DNA of 64,000 bases from an uncultured Bacteroidia bacterium. Its GTDB lineage: Bacteria; CAIWAD01; BS150m-G50. The first letter of the stretch is position 1. Each line of letters begins with the position of its first letter. Shown here piece after piece: positions 21,299-36,045 of this stretch. The notes below the pieces were generated by a model that ran no database searches, was not told the origin of the DNA, and saw nothing but the letters and a program-made list of their open reading frames with translations. Location of the stretch: contig CAZFEC010000001.1 of NCBI GenBank assembly GCA_964517435.1, positions 7,518 through 71,517 of the forward strand, written 5' to 3'. The position numbers were made by a program, and so were the translations under genes.

Positions 21299-24200
21299 AT
21301 GCGTAAACTCATCACCGGATTCATGATTCTGCTGACCGCCTCTTGGGCTATGGCGCTTAACCCGGGCGACCTGGTCGTCAACGAGATCATGCAGAATCCC
21401 GCCGCCGTCGCTGATTCGGATGGCGAGTGGTTTGAGGTTTACAACGCAACCGAACTAACCGTCAATCTGAATGGATTGGTTTTCACAGAAGATGCCTTCG
21501 GCAATATCTTCACAGTCGGAAGTGATGTTCTTATCGACGCCGGTGGCTATGCATTGCTGGCTCGGAATGCCGATCCGCTGGTAAATGGTGGTCTGCCTAC
21601 CGTCGACTATGTGTATCCCGGTGGTTATTATCTGGGTAACAGCTCTGACGAAGTTATCATCCTGGAGATCGTCGGTATCGATACCACTGTCATCGATGAA
21701 GTCTGGTACGACAACGGCGCCACCTTCCCCGATCCCAACGGCGCCAGCATGGCTTTGCTCAGCGTTGACCTGGACAACAACGTCGGTGCCAACTGGTACG
21801 AGGAATCGACCTTTACCTATGGTGACGGCGACTACGGTACTCCCGGCGCCGCCAACCAGCAGGAAGGTTTCCCGCTCATCACCGATGTTTCGCAGGTTCC
21901 CGGTGCTCCGGGCAGCAGCGATGATGTCGACATCACCGCGACCGTCACCGATCCGGCCACCCGAACGGTAGCCAACGTCGATCTCATCTATGATGTAGAT
22001 GGAGCGCCCGCTGTCATCGTCGACATGACTCCCGCTGGCGATATCTACAGCGGCACCATTCCGGCTCAGATTGCCGGCTCCGTCGTCACCTGGCGCATCG
22101 AAGCCACCGATGATGAGGATAACACCTCCTTCTTCGGACCGGTTGTCTACACCGTGGTGGATGTTCCGCTTTACAGCATCTACGATATCCAGTACTCAAC
22201 CGATCCCGATTACCCATCCCCCTATGAAGGGCAAATGGTACAGGTCACCGGTATCGTGACCGCCATCGGCCTCTCCGGCGACGGCAGCTTCTTCCTGCAG
22301 GATGACGAAGCCCCCTGGTGCGGTATCCAGATTTACGGCAACAACGACGGCGTCGCTATCGACGACTCGGTGACCGTCACAGGTATAGTCGAGGAGTATT
22401 ACACCCAGACCGAGCTGCACATCTACGGTTCGGATGTATTCACCATCCACTCCAGTGGCCACACTCCGGTGGAACCGCTGCTGGTTCCGGTCGGCACCGC
22501 TTACACTGAGCCTTACGAATCGGTACTGGTCCGGGTTGAGAATACCACCTGTGTCAGTCTGCCCGATGGCTACGGCGAGTGGGAAATCAGCGATGGCGTG
22601 GACACTGGTCTTGTCGATGACTGGTTCGTCAGCTTCACCCCGACTCTGGAACAGTGCTACGACATTCAGGGTCTGGTTTACTTCTACTATAACTACAAGA
22701 TCTGCCCACGCGACCTGAGCGAGATCACCATCTGCGGCGGCGGCAATCTGCCACCCACCATCACCGACGTCGCGCATGTACCGTTACTCCCGACCAGCGT
22801 CGATATCGTGACCGTCAGCGCGACGGTTACCGATGATGTCGGCGTCGCCAGTGTGGTGCTGAACTACAGTGTGGGCGGCGGCGGTTACGTACCAGTAGCC
22901 ATGACCCCCGGCATTGACGACCTCTACAGCGGTGACATACCGGCACAGGTTGACGGTTCGCATGTGGACTATTACCTCGTCGCCACCGACACGCCCGATG
23001 GGGATACAACTACCAGCGACATCGGATTCTATGATGTCATCGATGTCTACACCTGCGAAGACATCTCCAACATCCGTGTCGTTGACGTGGACGGCGTGCC
23101 GGTGATGGAAGGTCAAGCGGTGATGGTCTGCGGTGTGCTGACCGTCGCCCATGAATTCGGCTCCAGCGGCCCCGGCTATCTGGTTCATGAAACCGGTTCC
23201 GTAGCTTTCCACGGCGGCGTTTTCGGTGATGATACCAGTTTAATTATTGGCGACGAAGTCGAGGTTATCGGTATCGTCGGCGCTTATAACGGCCTGACCC
23301 AGATCCAGGATCCGCCGGTAGTCAACTTCATCGGCCATGTCGGTCCGCCCACTCCCACTGTCGTCACCCTGGCCACACTCGGTGCCGGCGGTGAAGCCTG
23401 GGAAGCGCAGCTGGTAACGGTAGAAGGTGTTACCCTGGTCGATCCGGAGAACTGGCCGGCTGAAGGGGATTACGCCACCGTGATCCTGCAACAGGGCGTC
23501 GATACTTATGACATGTACATTGACCGCGACACCAATATCGACGGTTCAATTGCGCCTACCGGCACCTTCAATGTAACCGGAGTCATCGGCCAGTACGACA
23601 CGACACTGCCTTGGACTGAAGGCTACAACATCTCTCCGCGTATGCTCGATGACGTCGGCGGCGGCGGCGAGCCTCCGGTCGTGACGATCTACGACATCCA
23701 GTACACCACAGATCCCTCCGGCGATTCACCGCTGGCCGGGCAGATGGTTACCACCAGCGGCATCGTCTACGCCGTCTCAGGCGCCGGTTTCTTCATCCAG
23801 GATGACGACGCCACCTGGTCCGGCATCCAGGTCTTCGGCGCCAACAACCAGATTGTGGTTGGTGATGAGGTCACGGTAACCGGCCAGGTTGTCGAGTACT
23901 ACAACTTCACCGAGCTGACCATCAGTGATTCCACCGCTTACACCATCCTGACGAGCGGCAATCCGCTCTATCCTGTAGCGCTGGGAACGATTCCGGCTAT
24001 CTATGTCGAGGACTACGAAGGTGTGTTCGTCGGTGTCCAGAATGTTACCTGCTCAAACATTGATCTGGGATACGGCGAATGGGAAATCACCGACGGTACC
24101 AACCTGGGTGTTGTCAACGACCTGATGTACGCCTATGTGCCAGTACTGGATGAGTGCTTCGACCTGGTACAGGGTGCTCTCACTTACGGTTTCGGTGCTT

Positions 24201-24454
24201 ACAAGATCGAACCGCGCGAGGCGGGTGATATCGTCAACTGTGCCACGCTGGATGCTCCGGTGGTCACCATCACCTATTCCGGCGGCAGTGCCATCCTCAC
24301 CTGGGATCCGGTCGACGGGGCCACCGACTACCGGGTACATGTCAGCACCGAGCCGTACGGCGGCTGGGATGCCGGCACTCTCACCGGCGGTCTGACCACC
24401 TACACCTACCCGTCAACAGGTATGTACTTCTTCCATGTTGTAGCGTTGAACTAG
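21299..24454 (+). CDS. Large secreted/surface protein with an N-terminal lamin-tail domain (LTD), three ExeM/NucH-N-terminal-like beta modules, two Ig-like modules and a C-terminal FN3-like domain
   Basis: Signal peptide MRKLITGFMILLTASWAMA; LTD signature LVVNEIMQNPAAVADSDGEWFEVYN. Internal repeats IYDIQY(S/T)TDP...GQMV...GIV...FF(L/I)QDD occur at ~22170-22640 and ~23680-24140, with a divergent third copy at ~23030-23640. The module pair (P(L/T)ITDV...TVTD...YSG(T/D)IPAQ(I/V)) is duplicated at ~21875-22130 and ~22750-23010. C-terminus is DYRVHVSTEPYGGW...FFHVVALN. No nuclease catalytic domain detected. Confidence 0.75.
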   Translation: MRKLITGFMILLTASWAMALNPGDLVVNEIMQNPAAVADSDGEWFEVYNATELTVNLNGLVFTEDAFGNIFTVGSDVLIDAGGYALLARNADPLVNGGLPTVDYVYPGGYYLGNSSDEVIILEIVGIDTTVIDEVWYDNGATFPDPNGASMALLSVDLDNNVGANWYEESTFTYGDGDYGTPGAANQQEGFPLITDVSQVPGAPGSSDDVDITATVTDPATRTVANVDLIYDVDGAPAVIVDMTPAGDIYSGTIPAQIAGSVVTWRIEATDDEDNTSFFGPVVYTVVDVPLYSIYDIQYSTDPDYPSPYEGQMVQVTGIVTAIGLSGDGSFFLQDDEAPWCGIQIYGNNDGVAIDDSVTVTGIVEEYYTQTELHIYGSDVFTIHSSGHTPVEPLLVPVGTAYTEPYESVLVRVENTTCVSLPDGYGEWEISDGVDTGLVDDWFVSFTPTLEQCYDIQGLVYFYYNYKICPRDLSEITICGGGNLPPTITDVAHVPLLPTSVDIVTVSATVTDDVGVASVVLNYSVGGGGYVPVAMTPGIDDLYSGDIPAQVDGSHVDYYLVATDTPDGDTTTSDIGFYDVIDVYTCEDISNIRVVDVDGVPVMEGQAVMVCGVLTVAHEFGSSGPGYLVHETGSVAFHGGVFGDDTSLIIGDEVEVIGIVGAYNGLTQIQDPPVVNFIGHVGPPTPTVVTLATLGAGGEAWEAQLVTVEGVTLVDPENWPAEGDYATVILQQGVDTYDMYIDRDTNIDGSIAPTGTFNVTGVIGQYDTTLPWTEGYNISPRMLDDVGGGGEPPVVTIYDIQYTTDPSGDSPLAGQMVTTSGIVYAVSGAGFFIQDDDATWSGIQVFGANNQIVVGDEVTVTGQVVEYYNFTELTISDSTAYTILTSGNPLYPVALGTIPAIYVEDYEGVFVGVQNVTCSNIDLGYGEWEITDGTNLGVVNDLMYAYVPVLDECFDLVQGALTYGFGAYKIEPREAGDIVNCATLDAPVVTITYSGGSAILTWDPVDGATDYRVHVSTEPYGGWDAGTLTGGLTTYTYPSTGMYFFHVVALN

Positions 24455-24682: not shown

Positions 24683-26776
24683 TTGCTGCCCATTCGCTTC
24701 ACACGGATCCTTACCACGCTTTACTCGCTGCTACTGGCGTCGATGTTGTTCCTGCCGGAACTGTCGACGGCATTTGACGCCCACCGTGAGGGAGAGATGG
24801 TTCTTGAATACCGTTACCGTTTCAACTGCCAGAACCACGTCCCTGACCATCTGCTCGGCGTGATCGCGGTCAGCGGCAACCGGCTGGTGATCAGCGGGAA
24901 TCAGGGTTTAGCTTTGGTGGATCACTCCCTGCTGACCCCGGCCGGAACCGACATCGCCCTCTCCCGGCTCCTGGGTCTGAACGCCCGCGAGGTCTACCTC
25001 TACCAGCAGAACTATCTATTCGTCAATCTCAACGGCACCGGTGTGAATCCCGAAGCCGGTTTCGCTGTGGTCAGGATCGATGGGGACAACCTGACTCCGG
25101 TGACCATCGTCAGCTCCACCGCGGTGTTTTTCGAGAAGATGGCAATCGCGGGTAACTACTTGTACGTGGCCGCGCACAGCGGTGGTTTCCATGTCTATAG
25201 TATCTCCAATCCCGAAGCACCCTACTTTCGCGCTTCGATCCCGACCGGTTTTGTGAACGCCTATGCGGTCGCGGTCGCGGGTGATACCGCCTATGTCGCT
25301 GACGGCGGCGGCGGCTTGAAAGTAGTCGATATCTCGAATCCGCTATCGCCGCTTTTGGTTGGCGGCGAAACACTGGCTACAGCTGTCGGAACAGCGGAGG
25401 ATGTCACCTGTCGGAACGGGAAGGTCTTCCTGGCGGCGGGGGCGTCCGGTGTGGCGGTTTTCGACGGCGCCGATCTGGCCAGCCGGAGGCTGATCGAAGT
25501 CGGCGGTGCGGCGCGCTCTTTCAGCTGGGTGGGAGATCACCTGGCGGTCTCCACCATTCACGGTATCGCCATTCTGGGCGAGGTCGGTGGTGAGTATCAG
25601 CTGGTGGCGAGTGAGATCACCGGACGGCGTGGTCATAATGCCCGTCTGCGTCTGTGCGGCGCCATCGGCACTGCGGGTGACAGCCTGGTGCTCTGCGCCG
25701 ACTGGAACTGCATGGACGTCTATGAACTGATGGAGTTCAACACCGGCAGTCAACCCGACATCAGTTGCGACCGGCAGCGGATTCGTTTTCATCCTGATGG
25801 CGAATCAGTCACGGCCACCGTCTGGAACAATGGCGCCGGGGATCTTCACATCACCGCCGTCAATGTCAATCCACCTTCCTTCAGCAGCGATTTCACGCCG
25901 GTCACATTGCAGCCGGGTGAGAGTCTGGGATTTCAGATCAGTTATAACGGTTCCGCCCAGCAGGACAGCGGTCTGGTACGGATCATGTCCGACGATCCGG
26001 ACGAAAGTCCGTTTCCGATCCAGATCTTCGGCGAGACAGGATACCTGAATCCAGGGGACCAGGCACTCGACTTCACACTGCCGCTCTATACCCGTGATCA
26101 CGGGACCGGGACCTACAGCTGGGAGCCGTTCACCCTTTCAGAGCAGCTGGGAAAAGTGATCTGGTTCCAGGCCTACGGGAGCTGGTGACCTGCCTGCACA
26201 CCCGCGGTCGCGGATATGCAGAACAGCATTGTCAAGGAATTCACAGGCAACCCGCAGGTGCGGCTGGCACTTTTGAATCCAGGTGACAGCCATAGCGAGA
26301 CCCTGGCCTGGACGCAGCACTTCTGGGACAATAACTATTTACGGGGGAGTTTTCTCTACGACAACGACGGCAGCGTTGACTCGTTGTACGAGCAACCCGC
26401 CACCGGCCTGCCTTTCGGGCGCGGTTTCATCATCGACCAGCAGGGTAATGTCGATCTGCCGTTTTTCGGTCACAACCCGCAGATGGTGATCGCGCGGATC
26501 TATGAACTGTTGGAGGACTCACCTCCGACCGCTCCGCAAAACCTCGCCGCGTTTGTAACCGGCGCGGACCTGGAGCTGATGTGGAGCCCGGTCACCGCCG
26601 ATGTCTGGGGTAATCCGATGACGGTCAACCATTACCGCGTGTATCGCGGCCAGGAGCCGTATTTCACTTGTGATGGTGAGCACCTGCTGGGGGAGACCGC
26701 TGACTGCTTTTATACAGTCGCTGGAGCGATGAGTCAGCCCGGTGGCTTCTTCAAGGTAACCGCAGGTTACCCGTAA
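24683..26776 (+). CDS. Candidate selenoprotein: secreted LVIVD-repeat beta-propeller fused to a TlpA/redoxin-like thiol:disulfide oxidoreductase domain (U-x-x-C) and an FN3-like domain; in-frame TGA (Sec?) at 26186..26188
   Basis: Track ORFs 24683..26188 and 26216..26776 share one frame, separated only by the TGA. The redoxin fold spans the TGA: ...GDQALDFTLPLY...LGKVIWFQAYGSW-[TGA]-PACTPAV...GLPFGRGFIIDQQGNV. The TGA therefore replaces the first Cys of W-C-x-x-C. The N-terminus has a signal-peptide-like helix and LVIVD-like propeller repeats (YVAAHSGGFHVYSISNPEAP, AYVADGGGGLKVVDISNPLSP). Confidence 0.55.
26194..26221 (+). promoter_or_regulatory. SECIS-like mRNA hairpin immediately downstream of the in-frame UGA
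   Basis: CUGCA-ca-CCGC-GGUC-GCGG-aua-UGCAG: a 5-bp lower stem, an internal loop, a 4-bp upper stem and a GGUC apical loop. The upper helix starts 13 nt 3' of the UGA, comparable to the ~11-nt spacing and G/U-containing apical loop of the E. coli fdhF bacterial SECIS. Confidence 0.4.
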
Positions 26777-26830
26777 TCGCAGGTTACCCGTAATCGCAGG
26801 TTACCCGTAATCGCAGGTTACCCGTAATCG
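26761..26830 (+). repeat. Tandem 17-bp direct repeat (cgcaggttacccgtaat, 4 copies) spanning the stop codon, followed by a hairpin
   Basis: Four perfect head-to-tail copies starting at 26761, 26778, 26795 and 26812. The unit is not a multiple of 3 and carries TAA in shifting frames. Each copy has the palindrome-related GGTTACC, and the preceding GGTAACC can pair with it. A hairpin AGTCTCAgcgctgagTGAGACT follows at ~26833..26854. Confidence 0.8.
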
Positions 26831-26894
26831 CCAGTCTCAGCGCTGAGTGAGACTACCGCGTTCGTATGTGTCGGATCCTGATTCAACCTCGGGA

Positions 26895-27916
26895 TCAGGT
26901 AATCCCGAGGTACTTCCGCAGGCTTTCTATCTGGACGTCGGTGCCCAGTACTACCATCTGATCGCCCGTTTCGAGCAGCGTCCTCGCGTTAGCCACCTCC
27001 AGCTGGTCCGCCGCCTGCTTGCGACCGACATGATGAGGATCCCGTCGGTACGCTTGCGGATGTCGGTGTCATGCAGCTGCTTGTCGACGCAGGGGGCGTC
27101 GGGCGGTATTTCAACTTGCACCATGCGGTAGTCGGTCTCGCCGCGGGTGACGAAGGTGTCCAGGAAGTCGGCGACGGCCGGCTGCAGCATCATGGCCGCC
27201 ATGCGGCGCCCGCCGATCAGCGATGGCGAGATCACCTTGTCGGCGCCGGCCTGCTGCAGCTTCTTGTCGGCATGCGGTTCGATTCCCTTGGTGATGATAT
27301 TGAGAGTGGGATTCATTTCACGCGCGGTCAGCACTACGTAGAGGTTGGCCGCATCGCTGTCGAGAGTCGTCAGCAATCCCTGCGCGTGTTCTATGCCGCT
27401 GCGCCACAGGGTCTCCTCATGGGTGACGTCCGCTTCGATCACCAGCAGATCGCCGGCGCGAGCCTCCTCGCACCGTGCCGCGTTCTTCTCGATGATGACG
27501 ATATCGAGGTTGGCACTGGTGAAGGAGCGAGCCAGTTCGGCGCCGACATGGCCGTATCCGCAGATGATATAGTGTTCCCGCAGTTTGCTGATCAGAGTGT
27601 CCATTTTTCTGCCTCGCAAGAAATCCTGAATAACACCGGAGGTGATGGCGGCGGTCAGGGTGGAAAGGATGAACCCCGCCAGACCGACACCGGCCAGAAC
27701 ATAGAAAATCGTGAAATACTGACCCGCGACGCTGAGTTCGTGAACTTCGCCGAAACCGACGGTGGTCAGAGCGATAACCGACATGTAGAACGCATCGAGC
27801 GGACTCTACCCCTCCAGCAGCATGTAGCCGCTGGCGCCGATTCCGATCAGCACCAGCAGCATCGCGGGCAGCGCCAGTAGGCGCGGGCGGGAAATCGAAT
27901 GCGTTTTAAGTATCAT
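26895..27916 (-). pseudogene. RCK/TrkA-domain potassium channel gene, apparently inactivated (in-frame TAG at a conserved Trp plus a probable 3' frameshift)
   Basis: Minus-strand translation from ATG 27916 gives MILKTHSISRPRLLALPAMLLVLIGIGASGYMLLEG-[TAG at 27808..27806]-SPLDAFYMSVIALTTVGFGE (selectivity filter), then a TrkA-N Rossmann motif (IICGYGHVG). K+ channels have EGW-S..DA.Y at this point, so TGG to TAG is inferred. The track ORF 26951..27784 ends in non-protein-like sequence (ASRRRTSWRWLTRGRCSKRAIRW). A +1 frame continues with a typical TrkA-C ending (ANARTLLETGDQMVVLGTDVQIESLRKYLGIT) to a TGA at 26897..26895. Confidence 0.5.
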
Positions 27917-33201: not shown

Positions 33202-36045
33202 GTGTATGCAAATCAACCGGAGGAACAAACCGAAATGCTGGAAGAAACCAAAAACCAAAACAACCAAACCCCTGAAGAAAAACCTGAGAGTACACCGGAG
33301 ACCGAAACTGAGGCCACTCCCGTCCAGCCGGAAACGGCGGACGACGCATCCCCGCCGGCCGAGGAGCAACCGGCTGCAACTGAAAGTGTTCCTGATCAAG
33401 CCGAGCAGACCGAACCGGCTGAGCAGACAGAGCAGGCTGAATCGACTGATCCGGCAACGGAAGTTGCGACTGATCCCGCAACGGAAGTTGCGACTGAGCC
33501 CGCAACACCAGTTGCGACTGAGCCCGCTGCACCAGCTGCGATTGTGCCCGCTGCACCAGTTGCGACTGATCCCGCAACACCAGCTGCGACTGAGCCTGCA
33601 ACACCAGTTGCGACTGAGCCCGCTACGCCAGTTGCGACTGAGCCCGCAACACCAGTTGCGACTGAGCCCGCTGCACCAGTTGCGACTGAGCCTGCAGCGC
33701 CAGCTGCGACTGACCCCGCTGCGCCAGCTGCGACTGACCCCGCAACGCCAGCTGCGACTGATTCCGTAGCTGAGGTTGTAACCATCCCGACCAGCATCGA
33801 GGAGATGATCGCTTCGGAAGATGTGATCTACACCGACCAGGAGCGGGAGGAACTCGCCCGCATGTACGACGACACCCTGCAGGAGATCCACGCCGAGAGC
33901 ATCATCTCCGGCAAAATCGTCGGCATCACCGACCGTGAGATCTCCGTCGACATCGGTTTCAAGTCAGACGGTGTCATCCCCCGCGAAGAAATCGACGACA
34001 TCTCCAACTACAAGATCGGTGACGAGCTGGAAGTCTACATCGACAAGATGGAGAACTCCGACGGCCAGCTGTTACTCTCCAAGAAGAAAGCCGACTTCGA
34101 ACGGACCTGGAGTGATATTCTCAGCAAGGACAAGAGCGGTGAGACACTGGAAGCGCGTTGCATCCGCCGGATCAAGGGAGGCATCATCGTCGATATCAAC
34201 GGCGTGGAAGCCTTTATGCCCGGTTCCCAGATCGATATCCACCCGGTACGCGATTTCGACGCCCTCATCGGCAAGGTGATGGACTGCCGCATCGTCAAGA
34301 TCAACGAAGCGCGCAAGAACATCGTGGTCTCCCGTAAGGTGATCATCGAAGAGGATATGCGCGAAGTGCGCGAGCGGGTGCTGAAGGAGCTGGAGGTGGG
34401 CCAGGTGCGCGAAGGCGTGGTGAAGAACATCACCAATTTCGGCGTCTTCATCGATCTGGGCGGCGTAGATGCGCTGCTGCACATCACCGACCTCTCCTGG
34501 GGCCGCATCAACCATCCTTCCGAGATCGTCAAGCTGGATCAGAAGCTGGCGGTCAAGGTGCTCGACTTCGATCGGGAACGGCAACGGATTTCCGTCAGCT
34601 ACAAAGAGCTGCAGCCGCATCCCTGGGATGGTATCGAGGACCGCTATCCGGTCGACAGCCGCGTCAAGGGCAAGGTGGTTTCCATCACCCGCTACGGTGT
34701 CTTTGTGGAACTGGAGCCGGGTATCGAGGGTTTGATCCACATTTCGGAAATGTCATGGACTCAGCACATCAAGCATCCATCGCAGCTGGTCAACATCGGT
34801 GAGGAAATCGAGTGCGTCGTTCTGGCGGTCCAGAAAGAGGATCACAAGATCTCCCTCGGTCTGAAGCAGGTGGACCCCAATCCCTGGATCGAATACGAAA
34901 CCAAATATGTTAAGAATTCCCGCCACACCGGTATCGTGCGCGACCTGGTTCCGTTCGGCGTCTTTGTCGAGCTGGAAGACAACGTAGACGGCTTGATTCA
35001 CATCAGCGATCTCTCCTGGACGCGTAACGTGCGCCACCCCGGCGAACTGGTGAAAAAGGGCGACAAGATAGAGGTGATGGTCCTCAACTTCGACAAGGAT
35101 GAGCGCCGCATCTCGCTCGGTCACAAACAGCTGTTCGAGAACCCCTGGGACAAGTTCGTCTCCGAATTCAATATCGGCGACTCGATTTCAACCGAGATCG
35201 TCAAGGTAATCGAGAAGGGCGTCCTGGTGAAAATCTACGAAGACCTGGAAGGTTTCATCCCCAACTCCAAGCTCGCCCTGGTCGACGAGGAGGGAAAACG
35301 CCGTTCGGCGCAGGAGGGTGAAACCATCATAGCCAAGGTGCTGGAATTCGACCCCCGCAGCAAAAAGCTGATCCTCTCCTCGCAGGAAGCGCGGATGTCG
35401 CAGGATGAGCGTGATGTGGCTGAGTACAAGAAGAAGTCGCGCGGCTCTGCTGCCGGCGGCACGATCGGCGATGCGATCGGTGAGGCGCTCCTGAAATCGC
35501 GGGTCACGGCCGACAAACCGGCGCCGGAAACTGAAGCTGTGCCGGAAGAGAAAGCTGAAGCCGACGCGCCCGCTGAGGTTCCGGTAGTTGAAGAGACTCC
35601 GGAAGCTCCCGCAACTGAAGCTGAAGCACCGGCGGAGACAACCGAGGAACCGGCGGAAGCTGCGGAGGAATCGGCTGAAGCTGCCGAGGAATCGGCTGAA
35701 GTTGCCGAGGAACCAGCGGAAGTTGCCGAGGAACCGGCTGAGGTTGCCGAGGAATCGGCGGAAGCTGCCGATGAATCGGTTGAAGTTGCTGAGGAACCAG
35801 CGGAAGCTGAAACAGCGGCTGATGTTGAAGAAGCGGCACCGGTGGAAGATGAGCCGGTTGCTGAAGTTGAATCAGAAGAGGTTGCTGAGGCTGTAACTGA
35901 AGAAACAGCGCCGGCGGAAGACGAACCTGCGGCAGCAGCTGAGGAGGTGCCGGCCGCAGCGGAAGAACCCGCCGCATCGGAACCGGCACCGGAAACCGAC
36001 GCTCCTGAAACTGGGACGGAACCGGAGGAGCCGGAAGAGAAGTAA
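33202..36045 (+). CDS. rpsA: 30S ribosomal protein S1 with long low-complexity N- and C-terminal extensions
   Basis: Six consecutive S1 (OB-fold) repeats with canonical spacing (SGKIVGITDREISVDIGFKSDGVIP; EGVVKNITNFGVFIDLGG; VKGKVVSITRYGVFVEL; etc.). The core is flanked by a ~190-aa Pro/Ala/Thr/Glu-rich N-terminal segment (T/A)PVATEPA x ~12 and a ~190-aa Glu/Ala/Pro-rich C-terminal tail (EEPAEVAE repeats), both encoded by 24-bp tandem DNA repeats. Confidence 0.85.
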   Translation: MYANQPEEQTEMLEETKNQNNQTPEEKPESTPETETEATPVQPETADDASPPAEEQPAATESVPDQAEQTEPAEQTEQAESTDPATEVATDPATEVATEPATPVATEPAAPAAIVPAAPVATDPATPAATEPATPVATEPATPVATEPATPVATEPAAPVATEPAAPAATDPAAPAATDPATPAATDSVAEVVTIPTSIEEMIASEDVIYTDQEREELARMYDDTLQEIHAESIISGKIVGITDREISVDIGFKSDGVIPREEIDDISNYKIGDELEVYIDKMENSDGQLLLSKKKADFERTWSDILSKDKSGETLEARCIRRIKGGIIVDINGVEAFMPGSQIDIHPVRDFDALIGKVMDCRIVKINEARKNIVVSRKVIIEEDMREVRERVLKELEVGQVREGVVKNITNFGVFIDLGGVDALLHITDLSWGRINHPSEIVKLDQKLAVKVLDFDRERQRISVSYKELQPHPWDGIEDRYPVDSRVKGKVVSITRYGVFVELEPGIEGLIHISEMSWTQHIKHPSQLVNIGEEIECVVLAVQKEDHKISLGLKQVDPNPWIEYETKYVKNSRHTGIVRDLVPFGVFVELEDNVDGLIHISDLSWTRNVRHPGELVKKGDKIEVMVLNFDKDERRISLGHKQLFENPWDKFVSEFNIGDSISTEIVKVIEKGVLVKIYEDLEGFIPNSKLALVDEEGKRRSAQEGETIIAKVLEFDPRSKKLILSSQEARMSQDERDVAEYKKKSRGSAAGGTIGDAIGEALLKSRVTADKPAPETEAVPEEKAEADAPAEVPVVEETPEAPATEAEAPAETTEEPAEAAEESAEAAEESAEVAEEPAEVAEEPAEVAEESAEAADESVEVAEEPAEAETAADVEEAAPVEDEPVAEVESEEVAEAVTEETAPAEDEPAAAAEEVPAAAEEPAASEPAPETDAPETGTEPEEPEEK

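Follow-up and report, generated by a model that had tools for sequence, protein, structure and literature searches.

Two consecutive open reading frames (ORFs) in the window analysed here, a 64,000-nucleotide stretch of contig CAZFEC010000001.1 from an uncultured Bacteroidia bacterium, raise a simple question: does the TGA triplet between them end a gene, break a gene, or encode an amino acid? The first ORF (24683..26188, 501 codons from a TTG start) closes at the TGA at 26186-26188, and the second (26216..26776) continues in the same frame. An earlier reading of this DNA from its letters, here called the original prediction, took the pair for one gene encoding a candidate secreted selenoprotein, in which the TGA stands at the first Cys of a thioredoxin-fold W-C-x-x-C motif and is read as selenocysteine (Sec, U). 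Having followed this up with comparative and structural analyses, we consider it very probable that positions 24683-26776 are a single gene for an exported selenoprotein of 697 residues.

The frame and its translation bear out the predicted placement of the TGA. Translation through the codon gives ...GKVIWFQAYGSW-*-PAC-TPAVADMQN..., that is, W-U-P-A-C; the longer context reads ...LGKVIWFQAYGSW-*-PACTPAVADMQNSIVKEF..., and the residues around codon 502 are ...AYGSW-U-PACTPAVADMQNSIVK. The TGA occupies the first Cys position of the W-C-x-x-C motif of a redoxin domain. With Cys put in place of the stop, a Pfam search finds an AhpC-TSA match (PF00578, 33.4 bits against a cutoff of 26) that extends from residue 457 to residue 590 and so spans residue 502, in agreement with the claim that one thioredoxin fold lies across the codon; a PF08534 match to the same domain stays under its cutoff (21.5 against 26.6).

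A sequencing or assembly error hiding a true TGC, TGT or TGG would be the simplest way to dismiss the codon, and nothing speaks for such an error beyond the general possibility that attends metagenome assemblies. Exact copies of the 501-residue product and of the 186-residue downstream ORF, divided in the same way, occur on at least 17 contigs; these represent at least eight samples and were assembled independently in several JGI samples and two ENA assemblies, and the gene calls in all public assemblies of the organism show a piece of 501 or 481 residues followed by one of 186. Three contigs compared base by base (L080-L082) match the window at 99.9-100% identity, with no change in the TGA or its context. 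This recurrence in independent assemblies leaves an error with next to no probability. The TGA is also kept at the same codon in a different species, L016 (CAZCRT010000004.1), which is syntenic with the window over 15.8-37.3 kb at about 60-88% amino-acid identity; one tblastx alignment between the two crosses the TGA with 67.6% identity over 660 codons.

Among more distant relatives the codon alternates between two states. A protein search returned about 50 clusters of 430-630 residues, 38-69% identical, nearly all of which end in Trp at the TGA column, together with six full-length homologues of 660-710 residues that read WCPAC there. In a scan with one genome per species we recovered 46 family loci, 34 with TGA at this codon and 12 with TGT or TGC, so that Cys occupies exactly the TGA column, as would be expected of Cys-containing orthologues of a selenoprotein. 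The TGA forms come from about ten phyla: Thermodesulfobacteriota, Fibrobacteraceae, Cloacimonadota, Eisenbacteria, Planctomycetota, Gemmatimonadota, Thermoanaerobaculia, Marinimicrobia/Fidelibacterota, Calditrichota and unclassified metagenome-assembled genomes. The Cys forms make up two clades, one of Bacteroidales with Kapabacteria and Spirochaetaceae and the other of Phycisphaerales, and in a neighbour-joining tree both are nested among the Sec forms. This simple distance tree suggests that Sec is ancestral and that Cys has replaced it at least twice. Two loci, L018 (11414) and L035 (9605), read W-U-P-A-S and W-U-P-Y-T while keeping both the TGA and the hairpin described below, a hint that the resolving Cys may not always be required. 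The genomic setting of the family is otherwise loose: when the ORFs of about 40 neighbourhoods were clustered, no family besides the gene itself occurred in more than six. Five Cys-form Bacteroidales loci (L019, L021, L022, L025 and L027) adjoin a sulfatase and DUF1566-like (Lcl C-terminal domain) proteins of the type IX secretion system (T9SS); this cluster is specific to Bacteroidales, and the Sec-form loci lack it.

If the TGA were an ordinary stop, the locus might yield two separate products, a propeller protein of 501 residues and a 186-residue protein (MQNSIVKEF...) started from the ATG at 26216. Gene callers do find this ATG, which lies in a conserved ADMQN motif, and annotate a downstream gene in many assemblies. 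Such an arrangement, however, would break the thioredoxin fold after strand beta1, ahead of helix alpha1, and lose the CxxC motif, and it would leave the downstream piece without a signal peptide though carrying secretion or anchor domains. The nine codons between the TGA and the ATG are conserved in frame, and the Cys-form orthologues are single continuous proteins. Nowhere did the two halves prove to be independent genes with complete domains; the fold is split in the TGA forms and continuous in the Cys forms. On these grounds we regard two separate products as very unlikely.

What follows the TGA is, moreover, no debris. In every TGA locus the frame stays open past the TGA, for another 129-469 codons where the contig reaches a stop (195 in the window gene), of which the first 110 or so complete the redoxin fold. 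The remainder differs by lineage and includes FlgD-Ig/T9SS-type tails (...GIYFVRL...KIVLVR), dockerin-like tails and, in L007, an IPTL-CTERM-like anchor. Sorting and anchor signals placed 3' of the UGA are useful only with read-through, which argues that the ribosome passes the UGA. Amino-acid identity is higher downstream of the TGA (77% with L016 and 58% with three distant loci) than upstream of it (70% and 45-53%, respectively), and between the window and four relatives the downstream part shows a proportion of nonsynonymous differences (pN) of 0.16-0.28 against a synonymous proportion (pS) of 0.53-0.91. These values point to purifying selection on the region after the TGA.

The same data bear on the caveat, attached to the original prediction, that the locus may be a pseudogene. 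In that case a nonsense mutation would have turned the TGC or TGT of a Cys-type propeller-redoxin gene into TGA, leaving the downstream ORF to decay. One third-position change from G, C or T to A is all that this would take, and the adjacent K+ channel gene does contain a real nonsense mutation, so the genome tolerates broken genes. Yet a pN far below pS, a TGA shared by 34 loci in about ten phyla and a downstream frame that is intact everywhere, with no frameshifts or extra stops in the relatives, contradict decay; the downstream part is the more conserved of the two, and the syntenic copy in L016 retains the TGA. Although the neighbouring gene is truly broken, the caveat can be dismissed for the propeller-redoxin gene, whose being a pseudogene we hold to be extremely unlikely.

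A hairpin directly after the codon points to the means by which it may be read. Counting the U of UGA as position 1, an upper stem-loop CCGC-GGUC-GCGG occupies positions 17-28 (window 26202-26213), below which positions 9-13 pair more weakly with positions 32-36. An alignment of 29 TGA loci shows pairing of the upper stem in 97% of cells, and in the Cloacimonadota locus L010 this stem-loop reads CUGC-AGUU-GCAG, with both strands altered and the pairing kept. A Marinimicrobia/Calditrichota subgroup has a hairpin at the same place, UCCG-GAGUUUU-CGGA or GUCCGC-AGUUG-GCGGAC, again with GU in the loop. Codons +5 to +8, which encode Pro-Ala-Val-Ala in the TGA forms, are all four-fold degenerate, and their third bases are identical in 25 of 26 TGA forms (22 of 23 at the Pro codon), with an entropy of 0.24-0.26 bits against mostly 0.8-1.9 bits at other four-fold sites in the same genes. 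The 11 Cys forms read Ser-Ala-Glu-Ala in the majority, with PVIA in the second clade; their Glu codon is invariably GAA, and the three four-fold codons vary at 1.45-2.0 bits. Third positions that are frozen in the TGA forms and free in the Cys forms argue that the PAVA peptide is a by-product of an RNA constraint that is present only with the TGA codon. The bacterial selenocysteine insertion sequence (SECIS; PMC1088965) is described as a stem-loop that directly follows the UGA and whose small apical loop contains G, and the hairpin here matches it in its position and in its small, GU-containing loop. The ATG at 26216, the Met of the conserved A-D-M-Q-N, falls in the lower stem of the hairpin, and an equivalent start is called in many loci.

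The hairpin might still do no more than stimulate read-through, with the UGA decoded without Sec, either by a near-cognate Trp or Cys tRNA or through a lineage-specific reassignment. This explanation draws on the failure to find Sec machinery in the window and in the loci examined. Against it stands the fact that about half of the remaining long ORFs of the window, well-conserved genes included, end in TGA as their usual stop, and genome-wide reassignment is therefore excluded; the host phyla, too, are diverse and use the standard code. The codon stands for the catalytic Cys of CxxC and alternates only with Cys codons, a signature of Sec and not of Trp or Gly, and the position of the hairpin and its GU-containing small loop fit a bacterial SECIS (PMC1088965). 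We thus think read-through without Sec quite unlikely. The alternation of TGA with Cys, the selected downstream frame and the SECIS-like hairpin together support the selenoprotein reading of the original prediction.

Several results nonetheless weigh against a Sec-decoding gene. The hairpin region folds no better than shuffled sequence (z = -0.2), so the case for a SECIS rests on comparative data and not on thermodynamics; covariation is thin, the stem being nearly invariant with three pairs that change on both sides; and neither the whole window at gathering thresholds nor a 220-nt region at permissive E-values matched a SECIS or other relevant Rfam family. ARAGORN detected no tRNA gene, and so no tRNA-Sec, in the window, and none in about 0.5 Mb of family sequence made up of 34 loci from L001-L046. 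Zero tRNAs in this much sequence is fewer than expected and may reflect chance or a limitation of the run. No SelA, SelB or SelD was recognised by eye among the approximately 45 long ORFs of the window, and tblastn with E. coli SelD and SelB as queries detected no homologue of either one, whether in the window or in the first 79 loci, the one weak GTPase match lying in an unrelated locus. Lastly, no CcdA/DsbD-like electron-donor gene is conserved nearby in the roughly 40 neighbourhoods, though one could be encoded elsewhere.

What kind of protein would a selenoprotein of this length be? To examine the fold, AlphaFold2 was applied to P0008, a Cys orthologue with 41% identity to the window protein, on the basis of a 73-sequence alignment, giving a mean predicted local distance difference test score (pLDDT) of 87 and a predicted template modelling score (pTM) of 0.84. 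The model consists of an N-terminal helix, a propeller (residues 36-357), a beta-sandwich (366-455), a thioredoxin fold (471-620) and a C-terminal beta-sandwich (635-709). The helix appears to correspond to the signal peptide; hydrophobic leaders also start the homologues of the window protein, which is probably exported. The propeller blades are all-beta with pLDDT mostly above 90, Foldseek relates them to generic seven- and eight-bladed propellers (E ~1e-14), and in the window protein Pfam LVIVD (PF08309) scores 61.9 bits against a cutoff of 20.2. The immunoglobulin-like (Ig-like) domain that follows has two matches under cutoff, PF22544 over residues 374-425 (E=6.5e-4) and NCBIfam choice_anch_D (E=1.2e-4), and closes with an invariant SxDPDExPxPI motif; no NCBIfam model reaches its cutoff on the window protein. 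In the redoxin domain, a beta-alpha-beta fold in the model, the helix begins directly after the active-site motif, and LPFGR, W, R, I and LL are invariant downstream of the TGA in 23 sequences, with LPFGR presumed to be the cis-Pro loop. The closest solved structures to this domain by sequence, from Etrx1 and Etrx2, ResA and CcmG/DsbE, are 4evm, 4hqs, 2yp6, 3c71 and 2b1l (E=5e-4 to 0.03). The predicted architecture of LVIVD propeller, redoxin and fibronectin type III (FN3) tail is thus borne out for the propeller and the redoxin, while the FN3 tail was confirmed by neither Pfam (no match at E<=1) nor AlphaFold, whose model of the tail is all-beta at low confidence (pLDDT 34-54); the tail is 40% identical between the window and L016. 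The coordinates of all features are collected in the table.

Features of the propeller-redoxin gene and its 3' flank (positions in the window; residue numbers refer to the read-through product)
Feature	Position	Strand	Basis or remarks
Read-through coding sequence, 697 codons	24683..26776	+	TTG start 24683, alternative ATG 24743, Sec codon 502, TAA stop 26774-26776
Putative Sec-type (secretory) signal peptide, residues 1-33	24683..24781	+	Basic RFTR, hydrophobic core ILTTLYSLLLASMLFL, then AFDA; read by eye
LVIVD-repeat beta-propeller, ~residues 38-350	24794..25732	+	Pfam, P0008 model, Foldseek
Ig-like beta-sandwich, choice-of-anchor D / HYDIN-VesB type, ~residues 357-452	25751..26038	+	Pfam, NCBIfam, model
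TlpA/ResA-like redoxin (thioredoxin fold), ~residues 455-612	26045..26518	+	Active site W-U-P-A-C; invariant LPFGR loop
UGA probably read as Sec (residue 502), nucleophile position of CxxC	26186..26188	+	TGA in 34/46 loci, TGT/TGC in 12; at least 17 contigs identical
SECIS-like hairpin	26194..26221	+	Lower stem 26194-26198/26217-26221; upper stem 26202-26205/26210-26213; apical loop GGUC 26206-26209
TGC = Cys505, presumed resolving Cys of U-P-A-C	26195..26197	+	Sequence; Ser in L018, Thr in L035
C-terminal tail, ~85 residues, possibly FN3/Ig-like beta-sandwich	26519..26773	+	Shared only with the closest relatives L016 and P0122
17-bp tandem repeat GTAATCGCAGGTTACCC, 4.5 copies	26756..26831	.	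Overlaps last five codons and TAA stop of the selenoprotein gene

Taken together, these features allow a general pathway to be proposed. The UGA at 26186-26188 would be decoded as Sec during translation, with the downstream mRNA hairpin recruiting SelB and its Sec-tRNA(Sec) as a bacterial SECIS does, and translation would go on for 195 codons past the UGA. The product would then be exported through the general secretory (Sec) pathway. Once outside the cytoplasm, the Sec502 selenolate would attack a disulfide, sulfenate or similar substrate and Cys505 would resolve the adduct as a selenenylsulfide, making the protein an extracytoplasmic thiol:disulfide-type oxidoreductase. For the propeller and Ig module, the likely role is to hold a protein or surface substrate, or to anchor the enzyme at a surface.

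The surroundings of the gene add some detail. Upstream, on the plus strand (21299-24454), lies a gene for a secreted protein of 1051 residues with a lamin-tail domain and weak similarity to the ExeM/NucH extracellular nucleases, the last ~70 residues of which weakly resemble the tail of the window protein (W-x-P-V ... Y-R-V, pairwise E=0.003). The two tails may represent a lineage-specific C-terminal domain common to exported proteins. Units of the 17-bp repeat GTAATCGCAGGTTACCC that overlaps the 3' end of the selenoprotein gene each hold the palindrome GGTTACC; one unit is missing from L080 and L081 relative to the window, and the L082 contig breaks off within the repeat. Downstream, on the minus strand (26951-27916), the K+ channel gene (Ion_trans_2 and TrkA_N) carries an in-frame TAG at 27806-27808 where L016 has TGG in an EGWS pore-helix motif, so the decay that had been noted in a neighbouring gene is real. 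Gene calls in all assemblies divide it into a 36-residue M1-helix fragment and a 277-residue remainder; the TAG looks like a fixed nonsense mutation, unrelated to the TGA of the propeller-redoxin gene. Further away, a ribosomal protein S1 homologue (33202-36045, plus strand) has long low-complexity acidic extensions at both ends, built of ATEPATPV-type and AEEPAE-type repeats, and JGI calls on other assemblies give a shorter gene of 746 residues. Judged by its arginyl-tRNA synthetase, whose best named match is 68% identical, the organism stands nearest to Candidatus Delongbacteria, in the FCB group. A scan of the window for in-frame TGAs with long ORFs on both sides produced no other convincing selenoprotein candidate, and many spurious ORF pairs because of the 60% G+C content.

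Regardless of the details of decoding, on which this gene leaves existing knowledge unchanged, a Sec codon at this position would have consequences for how the family is annotated and understood. The NCBI, JGI and ENA records that we retrieved for TGA-form members are split or truncated gene calls. The family would then be systematically mis-annotated, with about 50 clusters truncated at Trp and artefactual "hypothetical proteins" of 180-220 residues beginning MQNTIVKEF, and recognising the codon would put right the gene models of Marinimicrobia, Cloacimonadota, Planctomycetota, Eisenbacteria, Gemmatimonadota and the Delongbacteria-like organism of the window. It would also bring a large exported protein into a selenoproteome that consists mostly of small cytoplasmic redox proteins, and a redoxin tethered to a binding platform, often with a surface-sorting signal, would open extracellular selenol chemistry in low-oxygen habitats, together with its dependence on selenium, to experiment. 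More broadly, and only tentatively, since we give it somewhat less than an even chance, the gene may belong to an unrecognised family of exported or cell-surface multi-domain selenoproteins spanning about ten phyla, in which Sec is ancestral, Cys has arisen twice, and the supply of selenium decides between a complete, targeted enzyme and a truncated propeller. In such a family, the catalytic core would lie 3' of the UGA, as would the C-terminal signal for sorting or anchoring.

How does this gene compare with known systems? For the hairpin, the natural reference is the SECIS of E. coli fdhF, a stem-loop that begins about 11 nt past the UGA and whose short upper stem of G:C pairs is capped by a loop that likewise reads GGUC; in the work of Huttenhofer and Bock, the G and U of this loop reportedly contact SelB. 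Compared with this structure, the hairpin of the window has no obvious bulged U in its upper stem, its loop is 1 nt nearer the UGA, and its lower stem is weak.

The redoxin domain resembles TlpA, ResA and CcmG (DsbE) and the pneumococcal surface thioredoxins Etrx1 and Etrx2, all of them extracytoplasmic, with a W-C-x-x-C motif and a cis-Pro loop. Those proteins, at low identity to ours, use Cys, are single-domain, are anchored by membrane or lipid and receive electrons from CcdA or DsbD, whereas the window protein would use Sec, is fused to a propeller and has no linked CcdA/DsbD gene. The N-terminal two thirds recall a different group, the LVIVD and choice-of-anchor proteins (PF08309; TIGR04312 choice_anch_B; NF012200 choice_anch_D), which share the same propeller and Ig module; many large secreted bacterial LVIVD proteins carry T9SS or FlgD-Ig tails. 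Unlike the window protein, they show no redoxin Pfam domain among the matches listed, except in the family's own Cys forms, and to our knowledge none of the other listed LVIVD proteins contains selenocysteine.

In its predicted catalytic chemistry, the protein belongs in familiar company. UxxC thioredoxin-fold proteins are the commonest known class of bacterial selenoprotein, and those with AhpC/TSA, Redoxin or TlpA-type folds form established families, most of them predicted. Peroxiredoxin-like (Prx-like) selenoproteins have been described (PMC1088965), "Prx-like 1/3" are listed (PMC2398784), and a more recent table gives a "Prx-like thiol:disulfide oxidoreductase" (PF00578, UxxC) and a "Redoxin family protein" (PF08534) (PMC13188914 Table 1). 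Selenoprotein pipelines that work by homology may already have the redoxin part on file under one of these published names. The window protein is like the Prx-like UxxC selenoproteins in its AhpC/TSA-Redoxin fold, in probable Sec for the first Cys of CxxC, in a hairpin directly after the UGA and in having Cys homologues, and unlike them in that its redoxin is the third module of an exported protein of about 700 residues with a variable sorting tail; what links it to the published Prx-like and Redoxin families is the shared Pfam domain and the UxxC motif, and these only. In the literature that we searched, a fusion of a UxxC redoxin with an LVIVD propeller, an Ig-like domain and sorting tails was not found described. 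In this context, the gene, which seems to have gone unannotated, is a new addition to the known bacterial UxxC selenoproteins with a thioredoxin fold, one in which a familiar active site is set within a large, modular and probably exported protein.

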